A stretch of 64,000 bases of DNA from Candidatus Fervidifonticultor secundus (lineage in GTDB: Bacteria; Sysuimicrobiota; Sysuimicrobiia; Sysuimicrobiales; Humicultoraceae): assembly GCA_031459385.1 (NCBI GenBank), contig JAVKIP010000002.1, forward strand, positions 355-64,354. Reading direction: 5' to 3'. The notes below the pieces were generated by a model. That model saw only the letters and a program-made list of their open reading frames with translations, searched no databases and had not been told where the DNA came from. Within the stretch, counting starts at the first letter, position 1. Each line of letters opens with the position of its first letter. The position numbers and the translations under genes are program-made. Shown here piece after piece: positions 1,204 through 57,622 of this stretch.

Positions 1204-2283
1204 CTAAAGCGCTTCACTGTCCAAAAAGTTCCCCGGCGACGGTTCCACGAATCCCCGTTCCGCCAGATCCAGCAACTCCTTCGCGAATGCCGCGGCCGGC
1301 GGTGCGAGGAACATCCCCATGAGCCCGAAGACCGCGTTCCCCACCAGCAGGGCCACGATAATCGTGGCTGCGTGCAGGTTGAGCTCGCGACCGATGACCC
1401 GGGGCATGATGACCTTGGATTCGACCAGTTGGAGCACGGCGAAGAACACCAGGACCGCCAGGCCGGTGGGGGCCGATTGCACCCAGGCCAGTCCCACAAT
1501 GGGAATGGCGCCCAGGACCGGTCCGATGATTGGCAGAGCACGTGTCAGTCCGGCCACGATACCCAGGAGCAAGGCGAAGGGAACGCCCATCAGGGCCAGA
1601 CCCACCCCCACGACGACACCGGCAATGAGCATCAGGACCATCTGGCCGCGGACGTACCCTGCGACGATGCGCCCAAGACGATGACTCGAAGCGAGCACGG
1701 GTTGGCGCGCTGCGCTGGGCAGGAACTGGAGCCACTCGTGCTTCAGGATGGGGGTGTCAACAAGGAAATAGAAGGCCAGAATTGGAACGAGGATGAGCTC
1801 AACGACGTGGGAGAGCGACCTGATGGTGGCGTGAACCATGTTGCCCAAGGCAACCAGGAGCAGGTCGCCAGCCCGGGCGATCGCCTCGTCTACGCTCTGT
1901 TGGAGATCAGGCGGCAAATGCTGCTCAAGCGCAGTGCGAGTGCGCAGCAGAAGTGTTGCGCCTTCACGCCGATACTGCCCCACGTTCCGCGCGAATCGGT
2001 TGAACTCGTCGCCGATTGGTTGAGCCGCCAACCGTCCGATTTCGCCGAGCGCGAAGGCGATCAGCACAAACACGGCAGTGACCGCGGCCAGGCGGGGCAG
2101 AGGACGGCCCGCGAATCGAAGACGGGTAACCGACTCTACCAGCGGAAGGAACGCGTACGTCAGCATCGCAGCCAGCGATACGGTGACGAGGACGAAGCGC
2201 AACACGAACAGGAGATACGTCGCGACCCCGATGAGGACCGCCGCCATGGTGAGACGCGCCCAGCGTTCAGTGAGCGGCGCCAA
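1204..2283 (-). CDS. AI-2E (PerM/TqsA) family transporter
   Basis: Multi-TM; YVRGQ, LPIIGPVLGAIP and LQLVESKVIMPRVIG..LNLH motifs. Confidence 0.9.
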   Translation of the reverse strand: MAPLTERWARLTMAAVLIGVATYLLFVLRFVLVTVSLAAMLTYAFLPLVESVTRLRFAGRPLPRLAAVTAVFVLIAFALGEIGRLAAQPIGDEFNRFARNVGQYRREGATLLLRTRTALEQHLPPDLQQSVDEAIARAGDLLLVALGNMVHATIRSLSHVVELILVPILAFYFLVDTPILKHEWLQFLPSAARQPVLASSHRLGRIVAGYVRGQMVLMLIAGVVVGVGLALMGVPFALLLGIVAGLTRALPIIGPVLGAIPIVGLAWVQSAPTGLAVLVFFAVLQLVESKVIMPRVIGRELNLHAATIIVALLVGNAVFGLMGMFLAPPAAAFAKELLDLAERGFVEPSPGNFLDSEAL

Positions 2284-51862: not shown

Positions 51863-52383
51863 CCACCCTGGAAGGTCGGCGCGTCGCCGTCCTCACCGCC
51901 AGCGAGACCGTGGCCCGAGGGGCGGGCACCGATACCAGCGGCGATGTGGTGGTAGAGCGCCTGACCGCCATGGGCGCTGAGATCGTGGCGCGGGACGTGG
52001 TCCGCGACGACCGGGCGGTCATCGCCCAGCGCCTGCGCGCCTACGCCGACGACCTGGGTGTGGCGCTCGTGCTGACCACCGGCGGCAGCGGTCTCTCCCC
52101 CACTGACGTGACGCCCGAGGCCACGCTGGACGTGGTGGAACGACTCGTCCCCGGGCTCCCGGAGGCAGCGCGCCAGCGCACCGCGGCCGCAGCCCCCCTG
52201 GCCGTGCTCTCGCGCGGGGTCGCGGGCATCCGCGGGCGCACGCTCATCGTGAACCTGCCAGGCAGCCCCCGGGCCGTGCGCGAGTGGCTGGACGTTCTCC
52301 TGCCGGTGCTGCCGCACGCGCTAGCGCTGCTCGGCGGCGAGTCGCCCCCCTGGGGCCAGGAGCACCGCACGGACATCCGGTGA
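51859..52383 (+). CDS. moaB: MogA/MoaB molybdopterin adenylyltransferase
   Basis: DTSG, TTGGSG.SPTDVTPEA, LSRG, NLPGSP. Confidence 0.9.
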   Translation: MTTLEGRRVAVLTASETVARGAGTDTSGDVVVERLTAMGAEIVARDVVRDDRAVIAQRLRAYADDLGVALVLTTGGSGLSPTDVTPEATLDVVERLVPGLPEAARQRTAAAAPLAVLSRGVAGIRGRTLIVNLPGSPRAVREWLDVLLPVLPHALALLGGESPPWGQEHRTDIR

Positions 52384-53816
52384 GCGACCCCGGACCACCG
52401 TGGAGCCGGTGGGAGCGGCGCTGGACCCTGCTGCTCCTGGGAGCCGTCGCACTCAGTCTGGCTGGCCTGGGCCTGCCATCGTTGCAGGGCGACGACGTCT
52501 TCTACGGTGCCATCGCGCGGCACATCGTCGCCTCCGGCGAGTGGATCACGCTGACCCATCCCGACCATCCCGGGTGGCTGGTGGACAAGCCGCCCCTGAC
52601 GTTCTGGCTCATGGCCATCTCGCTGCGCCTGGGGGGCGACCACCCCGGGGTGCTGCGCTTCTGGCACGTGGGGCTCGCCCTGGCCACGGTAGCCGCGACG
52701 TGGCGGCTCGGCCGGCGTGCGCTGGGGCGCGAGGGCGGAGTGCTGGCCGCGCTGTTGCTGGGGACCAGCGGGCAGTTCTTCTACGTGGCCTTCGATCCGG
52801 CACAGGACATCCCCCTGACGTTCTTCCTGACCGTGGCCATGCTGGCCTACACCGACTACCGGGCCGGGGCCGGCGTGCGCGCCGCGGTGCTGACAGGACT
52901 GGCTGTCGCGCTGGCGGTGCTGACCAAAGGCATCGTGGCGCTCGTCGTGTTCGGACTGGTGGTCGCCGGCGATCTGGGGCTGCCGCCGTGCGGCGGGGCC
53001 TGGCGCTGGCGCGACGTCTGCGCCGGTGCCGCCGTCTTCCTGGCGGTGGCATCGCCATGGTTCGTCGCGGGTGCGCTCCGGGGCGGGCGGCCGTTCGTCG
53101 ACACGTTCTTCCTCTGGGGCCCGTTGGGCGTCGGGCGCTTCTTCCAGGGCGTGACGGCCAGGATGCCCTACGGGCAGGCGCTGGTGATCTTCGTGCCGAC
53201 GCTGATGGTGGGCGTCCTGCCGTGGACGGGGCTGCTCCCCGGGGCGGTGCGCGAGGGGTGGCGGGCCGTGCGCGGCGGCGCGCCGATCCTGCGCGTCTGC
53301 GCCCTGTGGGCGGGCCTCTACTTCCTGCTGCTGTCGCTGTCGCCAGGGGACAAGATGATGCACCACCTGCTGCCGCTCTATCCGGCAGCGATGGTCCTCG
53401 CCGCGCGCTTCGTGCTGGCCGCCGACGGGGATCCCCTGCGCCTGCGCGCGTCCGCAGGCGTGGCGCTGGCGGCCATCGTCCCGGCCGTCGCCGGTCTGGT
53501 CATCATGCGCCTGCGCTACCCCGAGACAGCCGGCGCCGTGCTGCCGGCGGCCGCGCCGTTCGTGCTCGGGTTGCTGGCCGCGCTGGGGGCGTTCGCCGCC
53601 CGTGCCCTCCGGGGCCGTGCGCGCGAAGCGGTGGCGCTCGCCGGGGCGGCGATACTGGTCGCGCACGGGTTTGCCGAGGCGCTGGTGTTGCGTCGCTGGG
53701 ACGCGTTCGCGCCAGCTGGGCGTCCCACCGCGCCGCCGGTGCTCCGGCAGGGTGGAGCCCCAAGCGGTGATCTGGTGGGACGGGGTGTGGTGGGGGCGCG
53801 TGGCGGCTTGCCTTGA
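52380..53816 (+). CDS. ArnT-like GT-C (family 39/83) membrane glycosyltransferase
   Basis: DD..Y..IAR....SG.W, DKPPL.FW, LAVLTKG, PW motifs; many TMs. Confidence 0.85.
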   Translation: MSDPGPPWSRWERRWTLLLLGAVALSLAGLGLPSLQGDDVFYGAIARHIVASGEWITLTHPDHPGWLVDKPPLTFWLMAISLRLGGDHPGVLRFWHVGLALATVAATWRLGRRALGREGGVLAALLLGTSGQFFYVAFDPAQDIPLTFFLTVAMLAYTDYRAGAGVRAAVLTGLAVALAVLTKGIVALVVFGLVVAGDLGLPPCGGAWRWRDVCAGAAVFLAVASPWFVAGALRGGRPFVDTFFLWGPLGVGRFFQGVTARMPYGQALVIFVPTLMVGVLPWTGLLPGAVREGWRAVRGGAPILRVCALWAGLYFLLLSLSPGDKMMHHLLPLYPAAMVLAARFVLAADGDPLRLRASAGVALAAIVPAVAGLVIMRLRYPETAGAVLPAAAPFVLGLLAALGAFAARALRGRAREAVALAGAAILVAHGFAEALVLRRWDAFAPAGRPTAPPVLRQGGAPSGDLVGRGVVGARGGLP

Positions 53817-53842
53817 CGCTGGCAGATGGCGACCGATATAAT
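53813..53842 (+). promoter_or_regulatory. Near-consensus sigma70 promoter TTGACG-N18-TATAAT of the T-box/tRNA/ilvE-leuS transcript
   Basis: Near-consensus -35 and perfect -10. Confidence 0.85.
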
Positions 53843-54042
53843 TGCACGAGATTTCCGCCATATCGGCGACGAACGGGAGCAGTAGGCCGGAAGTCTGCCT
53901 GCGAGCGAGCCGGTGGAGGGTGCGAACCGGCGGCAGGCCCGGCTGAACTCGCCCGGGAGCCGCGGGCGCGAACGCGTCGCGGACGCGACGCCAAGCGTCC
54001 GCCGCCTGGCCCGCGAGACGGGTCTAGAGTGGATGGACGCAC

Positions 54043-54117
54043 GGGGCAGTAGCTCAGCGGGAGAGCGCCCGCTTGGCGTGCGGGAGGTCGAGGGTTCAAT
54101 TCCCTCCTGCTCCACCA
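54043..54117 (+). tRNA. tRNA-Ala(GGC), 75 nt, CCA encoded
   Basis: Full cloverleaf: GGGGCAG/CTGCTCC acceptor with G3:U70, GCTC/GAGC D-stem, CCCGC-TTGGCGT-GCGGG anticodon arm (GGC 54075-54077), GAGGG-TTCAATT-CCCTC T-arm, A73-CCA. Confidence 0.96.
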
Positions 54118-54153
54118 GCGTGATCGGCGCGTCCGTCAACCGGGGTGGTACCG

Positions 54154-54199
54154 CGGAGGCCGCCTTCGCCCTTGGGGAGGAGGCGGCGCGCCGTTTTTT
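54154..54199 (+). terminator. T-box intrinsic terminator
   Basis: GCCGCCTTC(54159-67)/GGAGGCGGC(54179-87) stem, extendable by CGG/CCG, followed by TTTTTT 54194-54199; overlaps the 3' strand of the antiterminator. Confidence 0.88.
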
Positions 54200-54213
54200 G
54201 GGAGGAGAGCGGG

Positions 54214-55146
54214 ATGCAGCCATCGAGTCGGGTCTGGTTTGACGGCAAGCTGGTGCCGTGGGACGAGGCCACGGTGCACGTCGCAGCCCACGTCATCCAG
54301 TACGGGTCCAGCGTCTTCGAGGGCATCCGCTGCTACGAGACGGCGAGCGGGCCCGCGATCTTCTGCCTGACCCCGCACCTGCGGCGCCTGGAGGACTCGT
54401 GCAAGATCTTCCGCATGGCGCTGCCCTACACGACCGAGGATCTCGCCCGGGCGATCCTCGAGACCGTGGGGGTCAACGGGCACCGGTCGTGCTACATCCG
54501 CCCGGTGGTGTTCCGGGGCGTGGAGTCGTGGAGCGTGGAGCCGCGCCGCTCGCCGCTGCACGTGGCCATCATCACCATCGAGTGGGGGCGCTATCTGGGG
54601 CCCGAGGCGATCGAGCAGGGCGTCGACGTCATGGTGAGCTCGTGGCGGCGCATGGCCCCCGATACGCACCCTGGCATGGGCAAGATCGGCGGGAACTACG
54701 TCAACTCGGCGTTTGTCGTCATGGAGGCGGTGGACAACGGGTACGCCGAGGGGATCGCCCTGGACGTGTACGGGTACGTCAGCGAGGGCAGCGGGGAGAA
54801 CGTGTTCGTGGTGCGCGACGGCGTGATCTACACGCCACCGCTGGCCGCCTCAATTCTCAGCGGCGTGACGCGTATGGTGGTCACGACGCTGTGCCGCGAC
54901 TTGGGCATCGAGGTGCGGGAGATCCCGATCCCCCGCGAGTTGCTCTACGTGGCCGACGAGGTCTTCTTCACCGGGACCGCCGCAGAGATCACCCCGGTGC
55001 GGTCGGTGGACAAGGTGCGCATCGGCGGCGGGACCCGCGGACCGGTCACGCGGCGGCTGCAGGAGGAGTTCTTCGGTATCGTCGAAGGCCGGATTCCCGA
55101 CCGGCACGGCTGGCTCACGGCCGTGCCCGTCCTGAGCCGGCCGTAG
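54214..55146 (+). CDS. ilvE: Branched-chain amino acid aminotransferase
   Basis: QYGSSVFEGIR.Y, YIRP, K.GGNY.NS, EGSGEN, FFTGTAAEITP; GGAGGA SD. Confidence 0.95.
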   Translation: MQPSSRVWFDGKLVPWDEATVHVAAHVIQYGSSVFEGIRCYETASGPAIFCLTPHLRRLEDSCKIFRMALPYTTEDLARAILETVGVNGHRSCYIRPVVFRGVESWSVEPRRSPLHVAIITIEWGRYLGPEAIEQGVDVMVSSWRRMAPDTHPGMGKIGGNYVNSAFVVMEAVDNGYAEGIALDVYGYVSEGSGENVFVVRDGVIYTPPLAASILSGVTRMVVTTLCRDLGIEVREIPIPRELLYVADEVFFTGTAAEITPVRSVDKVRIGGGTRGPVTRRLQEEFFGIVEGRIPDRHGWLTAVPVLSRP

Positions 55147-55171: not shown

Positions 55172-57622
55172 ATGCGGTACGATCACCGGACCGTCGAGGC
55201 GAAGTGGCAGGCGCGGTGGGAGGCCGACCGGCTGTACCACGCGCCGGACTTCGACCCGCGGCCCAAGTTCTACTTCCTGACGATGTACCCGTATCCGTCG
55301 GGGGACGGGCTGCACATCGGCCACTGGTACGCCATGGCGCCCTCCGATGCGGCCGCGCGCTACAAGCGGATGCGGGGGTACAACGTGATGCTCCCCATGG
55401 GCTTCGACGCCTTCGGGCTGCCGGCGGAGAACGCCGCGATCAGCCGGGGCGTCCACCCGTACCGGTGGACGATGGACAACATCGCCCGGATGCGCCAGCA
55501 ACTGCGCTCCATGGGCGCGATGTGGGACTGGGACCGCGAGATCGTGACCTGCCAGCCCGAGTACTACCGGTGGAACCAGTGGTTCTTCCTGAAGATGTAC
55601 GAGCGCGGCCTGGCCTACCGCGCGCTGGCGCCGGTGGACTGGTGCCCGAAGGACAACACCACGCTGGCCCGCGAGCAGGTGGTGGGCGACGAGCGCGTCT
55701 GCGAGCGGTGCGGGACGCCGGTGGTCAAGAAGAACCTGGAGCAGTGGTTCCTGAAGATCACGGCGTACGCCGACGAGCTGCTCGACTTCTCGACGATCCA
55801 GTGGCCCGAACGCGTCGTCACGCTCCAGCGGAACTGGATCGGGCGCAGCGACGGGGTGGAGTTCGCCCTCGAGGTCCGCGGGCACCCCGGCGTGACGTTC
55901 CGGGTGTTCACCACCCGGCCCGACACCGTCTTCGGCATGACGTTCTGCGTGCTGGCGCCGGAGCACCCGCTGGTCGACCGCCTGGTGACCCCCGACCGGC
56001 GGGCGGTGGTGGACGCCTACAAGTTCAAGGCCGCGCGCGAGTCGGACATCGAGCGCCTGTCCACCGAGAAGGAGCGCGACGGGGTCTTCATCGGCGCCTA
56101 TGCCCTCAATCCCATGAACGGCGCCGCGGTGCCCATCTACATCGCGGACTACGTGCTGCTGACCTACGGCACCGGCGCCATCATGGGTGTGCCCGCGCAC
56201 GATGCCCGCGACTTCGACTTCGCCCGCAAGTACGGGCTACCCATTCCGGTGGTGGTGGCGCCGCCGGGGTGGGACGGGCAGCCGCTCGCCGCCGCGTACC
56301 TCGGCGAGGGGACGATGGTGAACTCGGGCGAGTTCGACGGCCTGCCCTCAACCGTGGCGTGGCAGCGCATCGCCGACGCCATGGTGGCCCGCGGCATCGG
56401 CGAGCGGAAGGTGCACTACCGCCTCCACGACTGGCTGATCAGCCGCCAGCGCTACTTCGGCACGCCGATCCCCATCGTCTACTGCGGCCACTGCGGTATC
56501 GTGCCGGTGCCGGAGGAGGACCTGCCGGTGGTGCTGCCCGAGGACGCGGAGTTCCGCCCGACCGGCGAGTCCCCCCTGAAGTACCACGACGGATTCCGGC
56601 GCACGACCTGCCCCCGGTGCGGGGCGGAGGCCGAGCGCGAGACGGACACTATGGATACCTTCGTGGACTCCTCCTGGTACCAGTACCGCTACCTGAGCCC
56701 GCACGACAGCCAGCGGCCGTTCGATCCTGCCGTGGGGCGGTACTGGCTACCCGTCGACCAGTACACCGGCGGCGTGGAGCACGCCGTCATGCACCTGCTG
56801 TACACGCGGTTCTGGACCAAGGTGATGCGCGACCTCGGGCTGGTCACGTTCGACGAGCCGATGCTGCGGTTGTTCAACCAGGGCATCATCCTGGGCCCCG
56901 ACGGCCATCGCATGAGCAAGTCCCGGGGAAACGTCGTCAATCCCGATGAGCTCGTGGCCGCGCATGGCGCCGACGTGGTCCGCGCGTACCTGATGTTCAT
57001 CGGTCCGTGGGACGAGGGCGGCCCGTGGGATCCCCAGGGCATCGGCGGGATCGTGCGCTTCCTGGGCCGGGTCTGGAGCCTCGTGACCCAGACCGCCAGC
57101 CGCACGCCGGCCGGAGCCCCCGACGGCGGCGCGGACCGCGAGCTGGAGTACTGGGTACACCGTACGATCGCACGGGTCACGGCCGACCTGGAAGAGTTCC
57201 GGTTCCACACCGCCCTGGCGGCCCTCATGGAGTTCACCAACACGTTGCAGCGGCTGCGGGAGGCCCTGGCCGCGACGGTGGCCTGGCAGGCGGCCCTGCG
57301 GACGCTGGTGCTCCTGCTCGCGCCGTTCTGCCCGCACATGGCGGAGGAGCTCTGGGTGGAGCATCTCGGAGAGGCCTACAGCGTCCACACCCAGGCATGG
57401 CCCGCCTACGATCCCGCGAAGGCCGTCGCCGAGCACCAGACGCTGGTGCTCCAGGTCGACGGCCGGGTGCGCGACCGCATCCAGGTGCCGGCCGGCATCA
57501 GCGACGAGGAGGCGCGGGCGCGGGCGCTGTCGAACCCGCGGGTGCGTCAGTTCATTGACGGCCGGCAGGTCGCCAGCATCATCGTTGTGCCAGGGCGCCT
57601 GGTCAACGTCGTGACGCGCTGA
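55172..57622 (+). CDS. leuS: Leucine--tRNA ligase
   Basis: MYPYPSG.GLHIGH, DAFGLPAENAA, FTTRPDT, GTGAIMGVPAHD.RD, RMSKS. Confidence 0.98.
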   Translation: MRYDHRTVEAKWQARWEADRLYHAPDFDPRPKFYFLTMYPYPSGDGLHIGHWYAMAPSDAAARYKRMRGYNVMLPMGFDAFGLPAENAAISRGVHPYRWTMDNIARMRQQLRSMGAMWDWDREIVTCQPEYYRWNQWFFLKMYERGLAYRALAPVDWCPKDNTTLAREQVVGDERVCERCGTPVVKKNLEQWFLKITAYADELLDFSTIQWPERVVTLQRNWIGRSDGVEFALEVRGHPGVTFRVFTTRPDTVFGMTFCVLAPEHPLVDRLVTPDRRAVVDAYKFKAARESDIERLSTEKERDGVFIGAYALNPMNGAAVPIYIADYVLLTYGTGAIMGVPAHDARDFDFARKYGLPIPVVVAPPGWDGQPLAAAYLGEGTMVNSGEFDGLPSTVAWQRIADAMVARGIGERKVHYRLHDWLISRQRYFGTPIPIVYCGHCGIVPVPEEDLPVVLPEDAEFRPTGESPLKYHDGFRRTTCPRCGAEAERETDTMDTFVDSSWYQYRYLSPHDSQRPFDPAVGRYWLPVDQYTGGVEHAVMHLLYTRFWTKVMRDLGLVTFDEPMLRLFNQGIILGPDGHRMSKSRGNVVNPDELVAAHGADVVRAYLMFIGPWDEGGPWDPQGIGGIVRFLGRVWSLVTQTASRTPAGAPDGGADRELEYWVHRTIARVTADLEEFRFHTALAALMEFTNTLQRLREALAATVAWQAALRTLVLLLAPFCPHMAEELWVEHLGEAYSVHTQAWPAYDPAKAVAEHQTLVLQVDGRVRDRIQVPAGISDEEARARALSNPRVRQFIDGRQVASIIVVPGRLVNVVTR

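Follow-up and report, generated by a model that had tools for sequence, protein, structure and literature searches.

A predicted leucine T-box leader with a tRNA-Ala(GGC) gene nested in its Stem III

Introduction

T-boxes are the best-understood RNA sensors of tRNA charging. The leuS leader of Bacillus subtilis, for instance, is a T-box with the specifier codon CUC. Here, we describe a leader with the same specifier that carries the gene of a different tRNA inside its discriminator. It lies in a 64,000-nucleotide (nt) stretch of DNA from Candidatus Fervidifonticultor secundus, a member of Candidatus Sysuimicrobiota (GenBank assembly GCA_031459385.1, contig JAVKIP010000002.1, positions 355 to 64,354 of the forward strand), which we refer to as the window and in whose own numbering all positions are given. 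In our reading, to which we assign a probability of about 0.72, it is a genuine class I leucine T-box of the genes ilvE and leuS, in which the apical loop of Stem III has been replaced by the only tRNA-Ala(GGC) gene of the genome.

With the canonical class I T-boxes (Rfam family RF00230), this leader shares Stem I and its specifier loop, Stem II, the Stem IIA/B hairpin, the RRRNG-Stem III-AA arrangement, the UGGN bulge, an antiterminator with a putative competing terminator, and a downstream gene that is cognate to the specifier. Ordinary leaders have a short Stem III hairpin, as do those of sister genera of the window organism (L162-L167; L and G numbers denote the loci and genomes that we compared, G000 being the window's own genome), whereas the Stem III loop in the window spans about 88 nt and holds a complete, non-cognate tRNA gene.

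Other described systems share individual aspects of this layout. In Escherichia coli, the tRNA genes of thrU-tyrU-glyT-thrT-tufB are co-transcribed with a protein gene and freed by RNase P. One promoter serves both tRNA and mRNA in this operon, tRNA processing separates the two, and a shortened variant of our leader (G009, genus g8) has essentially this layout; in the window, by contrast, the tRNA is placed inside a regulatory RNA, between sensor and switch. Leaders that are cut upstream of their terminator or antiterminator would likewise resemble it in giving an mRNA that begins with a hairpin, but the cutter in the known cases is a general mRNA endonuclease, whereas the predicted cutters at our locus belong to the tRNA-maturation machinery. 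Furthermore, known insertions at the distal ends of T-box discriminator helices likewise consist of extra RNA that is tolerated, but they are not genes; the insert described here is a conserved single-copy tRNA gene with a product of its own. The accessible part of one review describes insertions at the distal end of Stem III as tolerated and places the function of the stem in its base (PMC7583486), which fits the conserved basal helix that we report below. Finally, a tRNA gene nested in another functional element has a parallel in the tRNA-Sec gene predicted inside selB, as described in the available part of PMC8124441; the host is a coding sequence in that case and a tRNA-sensing riboswitch in ours.

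Our literature search, in which several key T-box reviews were not covered, turned up no report of a T-box that contains a tRNA gene. Likewise, the accessible portions of PMC7778990, PMC7583486, PMC2494555, PMC10424219, PMC11404447, PMC10907184 and PMC9481103 mention no nested tRNA. New here are the natural variants within the phylum and the ilvE-leuS context in Candidatus Sysuimicrobiota.

Anatomy of the leader

The locus is composed of the following features, listed with their coordinates, strand and the evidence for them.

53813-53842, + strand: sigma-70-type promoter, TTGACG-N18-TATAAT (11 of 12 matches; promoter scan)
53860-54176, + strand: T-box leader (end-to-end match to RF00230, model positions 1-219)
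53866-53960, + strand: Stem I with AGUA box, AG bulge, GGUG distal loop and specifier loop (RF00230 positions 7-103)
53948-53950, + strand: specifier codon CUC (Leu), in the context GAA-CUC-G at 53945-53951 (sequence and RF00230 alignment)
53963-54001, + strand: Stem II, CGGGCGC pairing with GCGUCCG (RF00230 alignment)
54003-54015, + strand: Stem IIA/B hairpin (RF00230 alignment)
54027-54031, + strand: purine string GAGUG (RRRNG), 5' of Stem III (sequence)
54032-54040, + strand: 5' strand of Stem III, GAUGGACGC (sequence, RF00230 alignment, covariation)
54043-54117, + strand: tRNA-Ala(GGC), 75 nt, with G3:U70, the anticodon at 54075-54077 and an encoded CCA (ARAGORN; Rfam)
54129-54137, + strand: 3' strand of Stem III, GCGUCCGUC (sequence, RF00230 alignment, covariation)
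54138-54139, + strand: conserved AA directly 3' of Stem III (sequence; motif as given in the accessible part of PMC7778990)
54141-54174, + strand: antiterminator, with helix A1 (54141-54145/54170-54174) and helix A2 (54153-54159/54163-54169)
54146-54152, + strand: T-box bulge UGGUACC (sequence and RF00230 alignment)
54159-54199, + strand: putative terminator, with hairpin 54159-54187, spacer GCGCCG and U6 tract 54194-54199 (fold)
54214-55146, + strand: ilvE, class IV aminotransferase (PF01063, E 4e-48)
55172-57622, + strand: leuS, leucyl-tRNA synthetase (PF13603, E 6e-63; also PF00133 and PF08264)

A previous, sequence-only reading of the window had placed Stem I, the specifier, Stem III, the tRNA and the antiterminator between a promoter and ilvE-leuS, and all of its coordinates hold in the sequence. 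In a permissive search of 511 nt (53750-54260), the RF00230 model matches the leader with 49.7 bits (E 5.6e-10) and finds 92 nt where it expects a 5-nt Stem III loop. Stem I possesses both the specifier loop, with a purine after the codon, and the distal platform for the tRNA elbow. The RRRNG-Stem III-AA arrangement, which the accessible parts of PMC7778990 and PMC7583486 give as the discriminator motif, is complete, with GAGUG, a Stem III of nine pairs (one of them G-U) and AA. Within the bulge, UGGU (54146-54149) is complementary to the ACCA end of tRNA-Leu(GAG), the cognate T-box ligand, which is encoded in the genome, and the bulge U matches A73 of this tRNA. The terminator hairpin shares positions 54159-54174 with the 3' half of the antiterminator, and the two genes that follow belong to the metabolism of the specified amino acid.

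The promoter at 53813-53842 is the sole promoter-like site in 53600-54400 (shuffle mean 0.0). The scan, which covered sigma-70-type sites only, finds no site at 53843-54043, including the stretch between Stem II and the tRNA, where a separate promoter would have spoken against the sequence-only reading.

The nested tRNA gene

In the whole 64-kb window, ARAGORN predicts a single tRNA, the nested tRNA-Ala(GGC), and the Rfam tRNA model (RF00005) assigns it 68.8 bits at a cut-off of 29. It is also the sole Ala(GGC) gene among the 56 ARAGORN tRNA calls in the window's genome (97.6 % complete), with the genes for Ala(CGC) and Ala(UGC) located elsewhere. GCC, which had been described as a very frequent codon, accounts for 46 % of all alanine codons in a roughly compiled set of long frames with high GC3. 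BLAST searches with the window tRNA also find the nested copy as the single Ala(GGC) gene of G002, G016, G021 and G034; a fifth relative, G048, is uninformative, since the query missed even its known nested copy.

The gene retains the G3:U70 pair, which is the identity pair of alanine tRNAs. This pair is invariant in the 40 sequences of the seed alignment described below and present in 101 of 104 rows of the larger alignment, which also includes a few other tRNAs. The anticodon GGC does not match the CUC specifier. Pairing of the nested ACCA end with the UGGU bulge in cis, or docking of the nested elbow on Stem I, was considered and set aside. In many loci, the nested tRNAs also yield sub-threshold matches to the Rfam tmRNA model (RF00023; 41-46 bits at a cut-off of 47); we rejected a tmRNA gene as the identity of the nested element, as these scores reflect its likeness to the tRNA-Ala-like domain of tmRNA.

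Covariation of Stem III and the tRNA

For covariation analysis, we used two alignments. The seed alignment (A1) consists of 40 sequences with at least five anchored Stem III pairs, and all nine Stem III pairs in it change on both sides. The larger alignment (A2) comprises the 107 matches, in 105 distinct rows, of a model built from A1 (R1) in 100 loci from a pattern scan beyond the phylum (see below), which were not chosen for Stem III pairing. Here, pairing reaches 87 % in the six basal pairs of Stem III, and the covariation that the sequence-only reading had called for is found at each of them, in the form of changes on both sides; the first pair, for example, occurs as G-C, U-A and C-G. The four tRNA helices are 98-100 % paired and show many compensatory changes. 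When the partners are slid by 1-3 columns, pairedness drops to 39-55 %, and none of 500 shuffles reaches the observed covariation score. The linkers between tRNA and Stem III are short: in the 88 leaders with at least five anchored pairs, they have a median length of 5 nt on the 5' side (mode 2) and of 8 nt on the 3' side.

Conservation within the phylum

BLAST searches with 53813-54260 give, in many genera, matches that reach from Stem I across the tRNA as far as ilvE. The tRNA-Ala(GGC) is carried by 27 of the 29 loci that we fetched; contig ends truncate the remaining two. In 16 of 20 relatives' loci, the RF00230 match extends across the tRNA. L013 and L014, which come from the window's own genus, have only a partial match of 104 nt, and L025 and L029 have none. 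Two leaders from the window's family (L018 and L019) do not differ, in the flanks compared, from those of records deposited under Candidatus Fervidifonticultor (L090 and L111).

Searched genome-wide, R1 gives 'full-length' matches even on stand-alone tRNA-Ala genes. Since bit scores from this model fail to distinguish clearly between nested and un-nested copies, we counted occurrences of an exact pattern instead, running from the tRNA T-loop to CCA and continuing, after 1-70 nt, with GGUGGNACCRCG. It is present in 50 of the 94 genomes of the phylum, two of which (G038 and G054) look like chance matches, and the reversed pattern is present in none. By family, it occurs in 24/33 genomes of f1, 15/22 of f2, 0/23 of f4, 7/12 of f5, and in the single genomes of f3, f6 and f7 (1/1 each). 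The counts include genomes flagged as unpublished, one with the nested (G019, L033) and one with the un-nested arrangement (G010; L166, L197, L203); no conclusion depends solely on these.

In one locus (L023, G033), the distal part of Stem I, 5' of the tRNA, is apparently deleted (AGUAGGCAGCGGCCGAACUCG), and the specifier loop is kept. This gap may be a real deletion or an assembly error, the metagenome-assembled genome (MAG) in question being 73 % complete.

Conservation beyond the phylum

A similar pattern, scanned over one genome per species of the Genome Taxonomy Database (GTDB), gave at least 120 matches, 114 of which contain a tRNA-Ala(GGC) according to ARAGORN. The others were set aside as chance matches, namely L079 with a tRNA-Thr, one match with a tRNA-Pro and four without a tRNA call. 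According to the depositors' labels, the matches listed include Bacillota (Syntrophomonadaceae, Peptococcaceae, Thermoanaerobacteraceae and Thermacetogeniaceae), Chloroflexota (Ktedonobacteria, Thermomicrobiales, Sphaerobacter, Limnocylindria and Anaerolineae), Atribacteria and a few MAGs labelled Proteobacteria. The isolates Thermosyntropha lipolytica DSM 11003, Desulfotruncus alcoholivorax DSM 16058, Tengunoibacter tsumagoiensis Uno3 and Desulfitispora alkaliphila DSM 22410 are also among the matches listed.

All 20 of a diverse set of these loci show a full-length RF00230 match that spans the tRNA, and 11 of them score above the Rfam cut-off despite the insert. The motif AACUC[AG] is located 5' of the nested tRNA in 109 of the 112 loci with a flank of at least 200 nt (8 % in shuffles), and GACUCG or AGCUCG stands there in the remaining three, which makes CUC (Leu) the specifier in all of them. 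In the 74 loci assessed, the first downstream open reading frame (ORF) encodes LeuRS in 48, IlvE in 7, a GNAT protein in 14 and an AMP-binding enzyme in 1, with nothing recognizable in 4. These comparisons indicate that the nesting is ancient and widespread and has been kept in well over a hundred species from several phyla.

Some of these loci have neighbours of their own kind. In MAGs of the Limnocylindria type and others labelled 'Chloroflexia', the leader is followed by a GNAT acetyltransferase of about 190 amino acids in place of leuS (L046, L053, L066, L070, L074, L075, L082, L086, L087, L098, L100, L101, L109 and L121). In Desulfotruncus alcoholivorax (L057, 1337-2455), the first ORF after the nested leucine T-box encodes the AMP-binding enzyme (PF00501), not LeuRS. 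Moreover, eight Chloroflexota loci, of the Ktedonobacteria type and others, have a tRNA-Ala(CGC) gene directly in front of the promoter of the T-box, some 330-400 nt 5' of the nested tRNA (L044, L048, L065, L068, L096, L106, L112 and L117), so that two Ala tRNAs flank Stems I and II there. As read by eye, these tRNA-Ala(CGC) genes have promoter-like hexamers of their own.

Natural variants

The phylum also contains leaders in which T-box and tRNA are not nested. In the genera g2, g3 and g9 of the window's own family, the ilvE T-box is intact, but its Stem III is a plain hairpin of roughly 30 nt. These tRNA-less leaders score 46-80 bits with RF00230 (G003, G004, G010, G014, G018 and G020; L162-L167 and L194-L198), and all six genomes encode a tRNA-Ala(GGC) 0.12-3.3 kb upstream, on the same strand.

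The opposite state is represented by genus g8 (G009 and G023). Here, Stems I and II are gone, and a promoter, TTGACG...TATAAT, lies directly 5' of Stem III. The tRNA-Ala(GGC), both strands of Stem III and the UGGUACC antiterminator before ilvE are retained, and the U tract is degenerate.

L029 (G009) 1584-1800, minus strand: Stem I-less variant, also found at G023:C348:2808-2869

This element resembles a T-box cut down to its discriminator half and is now perhaps just a tRNA-mRNA operon. Relatives that have the insertion only together with a decayed Stem I or antiterminator had been named as a point against the sequence-only reading; the insertion with a decayed Stem I is found in g8 only, and neither in the window nor in most of its relatives.

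In a tree of 35 IlvE sequences, rooted only at its midpoint, all six tRNA-less leaders lie to the same side of a branch with a support of 94/98, and the two Stem I-less leaders form a clade (100/99) inside the nested group. On this tree, two changes suffice to explain all three states of the leader. The tRNAs themselves belong to two alleles of 75 nt and 76 nt, each of which occurs both nested and un-nested. For instance, the nested tRNA of G013 (genus g12) shares 93-95 % identity with the upstream tRNAs of g2, g3 and g9, and the tRNA of the window shares only 71-77 % with them; family f4, in turn, has a stand-alone tRNA with 89 % identity to that of the window. Judging from these comparisons, tRNA-Ala(GGC) and the leuS T-box are persistently linked, with nesting as the commonest form of the link, and the two are separable, as each part survives without the other.

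Interpretation and alternative explanations

The RF00230 alignment, the promoter scan, the single-copy status of the tRNA, the conservation and the covariation together bear out the central proposal of the sequence-only reading, that an intact, non-cognate tRNA-Ala(GGC) lies in Stem III of a leucine T-box upstream of ilvE-leuS. Its further proposal, that the leader is both riboswitch and tRNA precursor, stands in part: the anatomy supports it, and the dual role is suggested by comparative evidence.

Several observations weigh against this reading. The window leader's 49.7 bits lie below the Rfam gathering score of 93, and a search at the curated cut-off reports no T-box at the locus. The U tract begins 6 nt behind the terminator hairpin, and a terminator scanner called nothing in the leader under its own loop rule. 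The A2 pair next to the bulge (54153/54169) is G-C in the window and in the genera closest to it (CGCCC). At this pair, G-U or A-U predominates among the nested leaders (CGUCC), with T in 114 and C in 23 of 139 leaders by a rough first-match regular expression that probably over-counts C; the terminal G-U pair of A2 is described as a steric sensor in the accessible part of a review (PMC7583486). The minimum-free-energy fold of the whole leader contains neither Stem III nor a full cloverleaf (z = -1.5). As to covariation, the members of A1 were picked on pairing, so that their pairedness is partly built in, and A2 was fitted to the structure of the R1 model; an unanchored test for 7-mer Stem III strands gives perfect matches in only 62 of 138 leaders (11 % with swapped partners), and a strictly anchored rule finds at least five consecutive pairs in only 90 of 133. 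Among the sequencing runs searched for the locus, no RNA run contains it. Finally, the natural variants make clear that both parts can do without nesting, which leaves a functional coupling hypothetical.

Two of these points can be put into context. The window's genome yields 11 RF00230 matches in about nine leaders (L001-L011), all below the gathering score and the best at 64.3 bits; a low score is typical of this organism, with its G+C content of 71.9 %. We treat the whole-leader fold as uninformative for an RNA of 357 nt and 72 % G+C; it recovers the terminator and parts of Stem I. By its sequence, the window element aligns as a class I T-box, is predicted to work like one, and clearly falls short only of the Rfam score cut-off.

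One alternative is that the locus consists of two independent, overlapping units, with the tRNA expressed from a promoter of its own inside the leader and the T-box transcript separate from it. Genus g8, whose promoter sits directly before Stem III, shows that a tRNA-proximal promoter can evolve here, and our scan looked at sigma-70-type sites only. However, no promoter-like site was found at 53843-54043 in the window, and the promoter of g8 stands in the place of Stems I and II and is not embedded in an intact leader, in agreement with the lack of an RF00230 match in L029. Even with an internal promoter, transcripts from upstream would still run through the tRNA, and we consider this arrangement unlikely.

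We regard it as similarly improbable that the leader is a decaying T-box that no longer switches and merely provides promoter, spacer and terminator for the tRNA, with ilvE-leuS expressed by leak-through. The score below the cut-off, the G-C pair in A2 and the atypical terminator spacing would suit such a relic, and g8 illustrates that this kind of decay happens. Against it, all modules align end to end with RF00230, and the leader retains CUC as its specifier, the complete RRRNG-Stem III-AA motif and an intact UGGUACC. The other T-box leaders of the genome likewise remain below the cut-off, Stem I is conserved across genera, and the antiterminator and putative terminator would be mutually exclusive, as expected of a switch.

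Very unlikely, in our view, is that the riboswitch carries the insert as a structural module in the shape of a tRNA and not as a source of functional tRNA-Ala. T-box domains do carry insertions of unknown function, according to the accessible part of PMC7583486, and the lack of the locus in RNA runs would be compatible with this idea. Yet the insert is the only Ala(GGC) gene in the window's genome and in all four informative relatives, and it keeps G3:U70, the GGC anticodon and CCA. Furthermore, the un-nested lineages have a stand-alone tRNA-Ala(GGC), nearby upstream in 6/6 genomes, and likewise a stand-alone one in both loci checked in family f4 (L169, L170), and both tRNA alleles occur in either arrangement.

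An assembly chimera joining the tRNA to the T-box, for which the 59-contig assembly with its estimated contamination of 5.5 % and the breakage of public-run contigs inside the tRNA might speak, is refuted to our satisfaction, as both junctions lie within single contigs of four metagenome runs (53700-54072, 54078-54176 and 54078-54400), the same order of parts recurs in 50/94 genomes of the phylum and 114 loci elsewhere, and the nested loci include isolate genomes. These four DNA runs, in which the window locus was found, stem from one hot-spring study. The contigs break inside the tRNA because its sequence is common to many organisms in the sample. Loose contig ends at the borders of the tRNA continue into T-box flanks that belong to other members of the family, and several co-resident species therefore have the same layout.

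Proposed mechanism

We return to the reading of the locus as a genuine leucine T-box with a nested tRNA gene. The most economical form of this reading is that a single transcript probably acts as regulator and tRNA precursor alike. From the sequence, we infer a course of events that would lead from co-transcription through switching to the release and processing of the tRNA. RNA polymerase would start from the single promoter at 53813-53842, with a transcript start near 53849. Stems I and II would capture tRNA-Leu(GAG) via the CUC specifier. Transcription would then proceed through the 5' Stem III strand and the tRNA to the 3' Stem III strand, and the tRNA could fold on its own while it emerges, its closed acceptor stem bringing the two Stem III strands together. 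The discriminator, consisting of the purine string, Stem III, AA, A1/A2 and the UGGU bulge, would read the 3' end of the bound tRNA-Leu and pick either the antiterminator, allowing read-through, or the terminator. Because the tRNA precedes the terminator, every initiated transcript would carry it, whether terminated or read through. RNase P and 3' trimming enzymes would release tRNA-Ala afterwards, and on read-through transcripts, this release would cut the sensor from the ilvE-leuS mRNA. Stem III pairs with most of the 5' leader and may, by loose analogy, also slow cleavage, in which case processing would probably lag behind the transcriptional decision.

A more far-reaching version holds that the nested tRNA is a working part of the switch. 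Folding quickly during transcription, it would clamp Stem III and add a fixed delay ahead of the decision point, and its processing by RNase P and the 3' enzymes would irreversibly cut the sensor from the switch. We find this doubtful. The sequence-only reading had suggested that processing could act as a kinetic timer or set the 5' end of the mRNA; as necessities, both ideas are weakened, because the similar ilvE T-box of the sister genera has a plain Stem III hairpin. If the tRNA were a working part, each leader would be a single-use device, with the operation of the riboswitch coupled to tRNA maturation. The ilvE-leuS mRNA would then depend, for its 5' end and its stability, on the activity of the leuS promoter and on the tRNA-processing capacity of the cell, and so would the supply of the main decoder of GCC.

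If the simpler reading is correct, abundant and mostly terminated riboswitch leaders would double as tRNA precursors. In addition, the distal end of Stem III would accept a folded domain of 75 nt, which would be useful for engineering and structural work. Leaders with the nested tRNA, T-boxes alone with an upstream tRNA, and tRNAs with only the discriminator offer natural controls for the effect of nesting on switching and on the fate of the mRNA. For genome annotation, the insertion lowers Rfam scores, as seen in the window, such that pipelines would under-call nested T-boxes; standard annotation would miss the T-boxes of this high-G+C phylum.

Minor observations

Two further features were noted in the course of this work. 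The ORF upstream of the leader (52284-53816, + strand) encodes a PMT_2-family glycosyltransferase, and its stop codon overlaps the -35 hexamer of the leader promoter. The ARAGORN list of the window's genome also includes a tRNA-Sec(TCA) and two calls labelled 'tRNA-???', with the anticodons 'cagc' and 'gc'.

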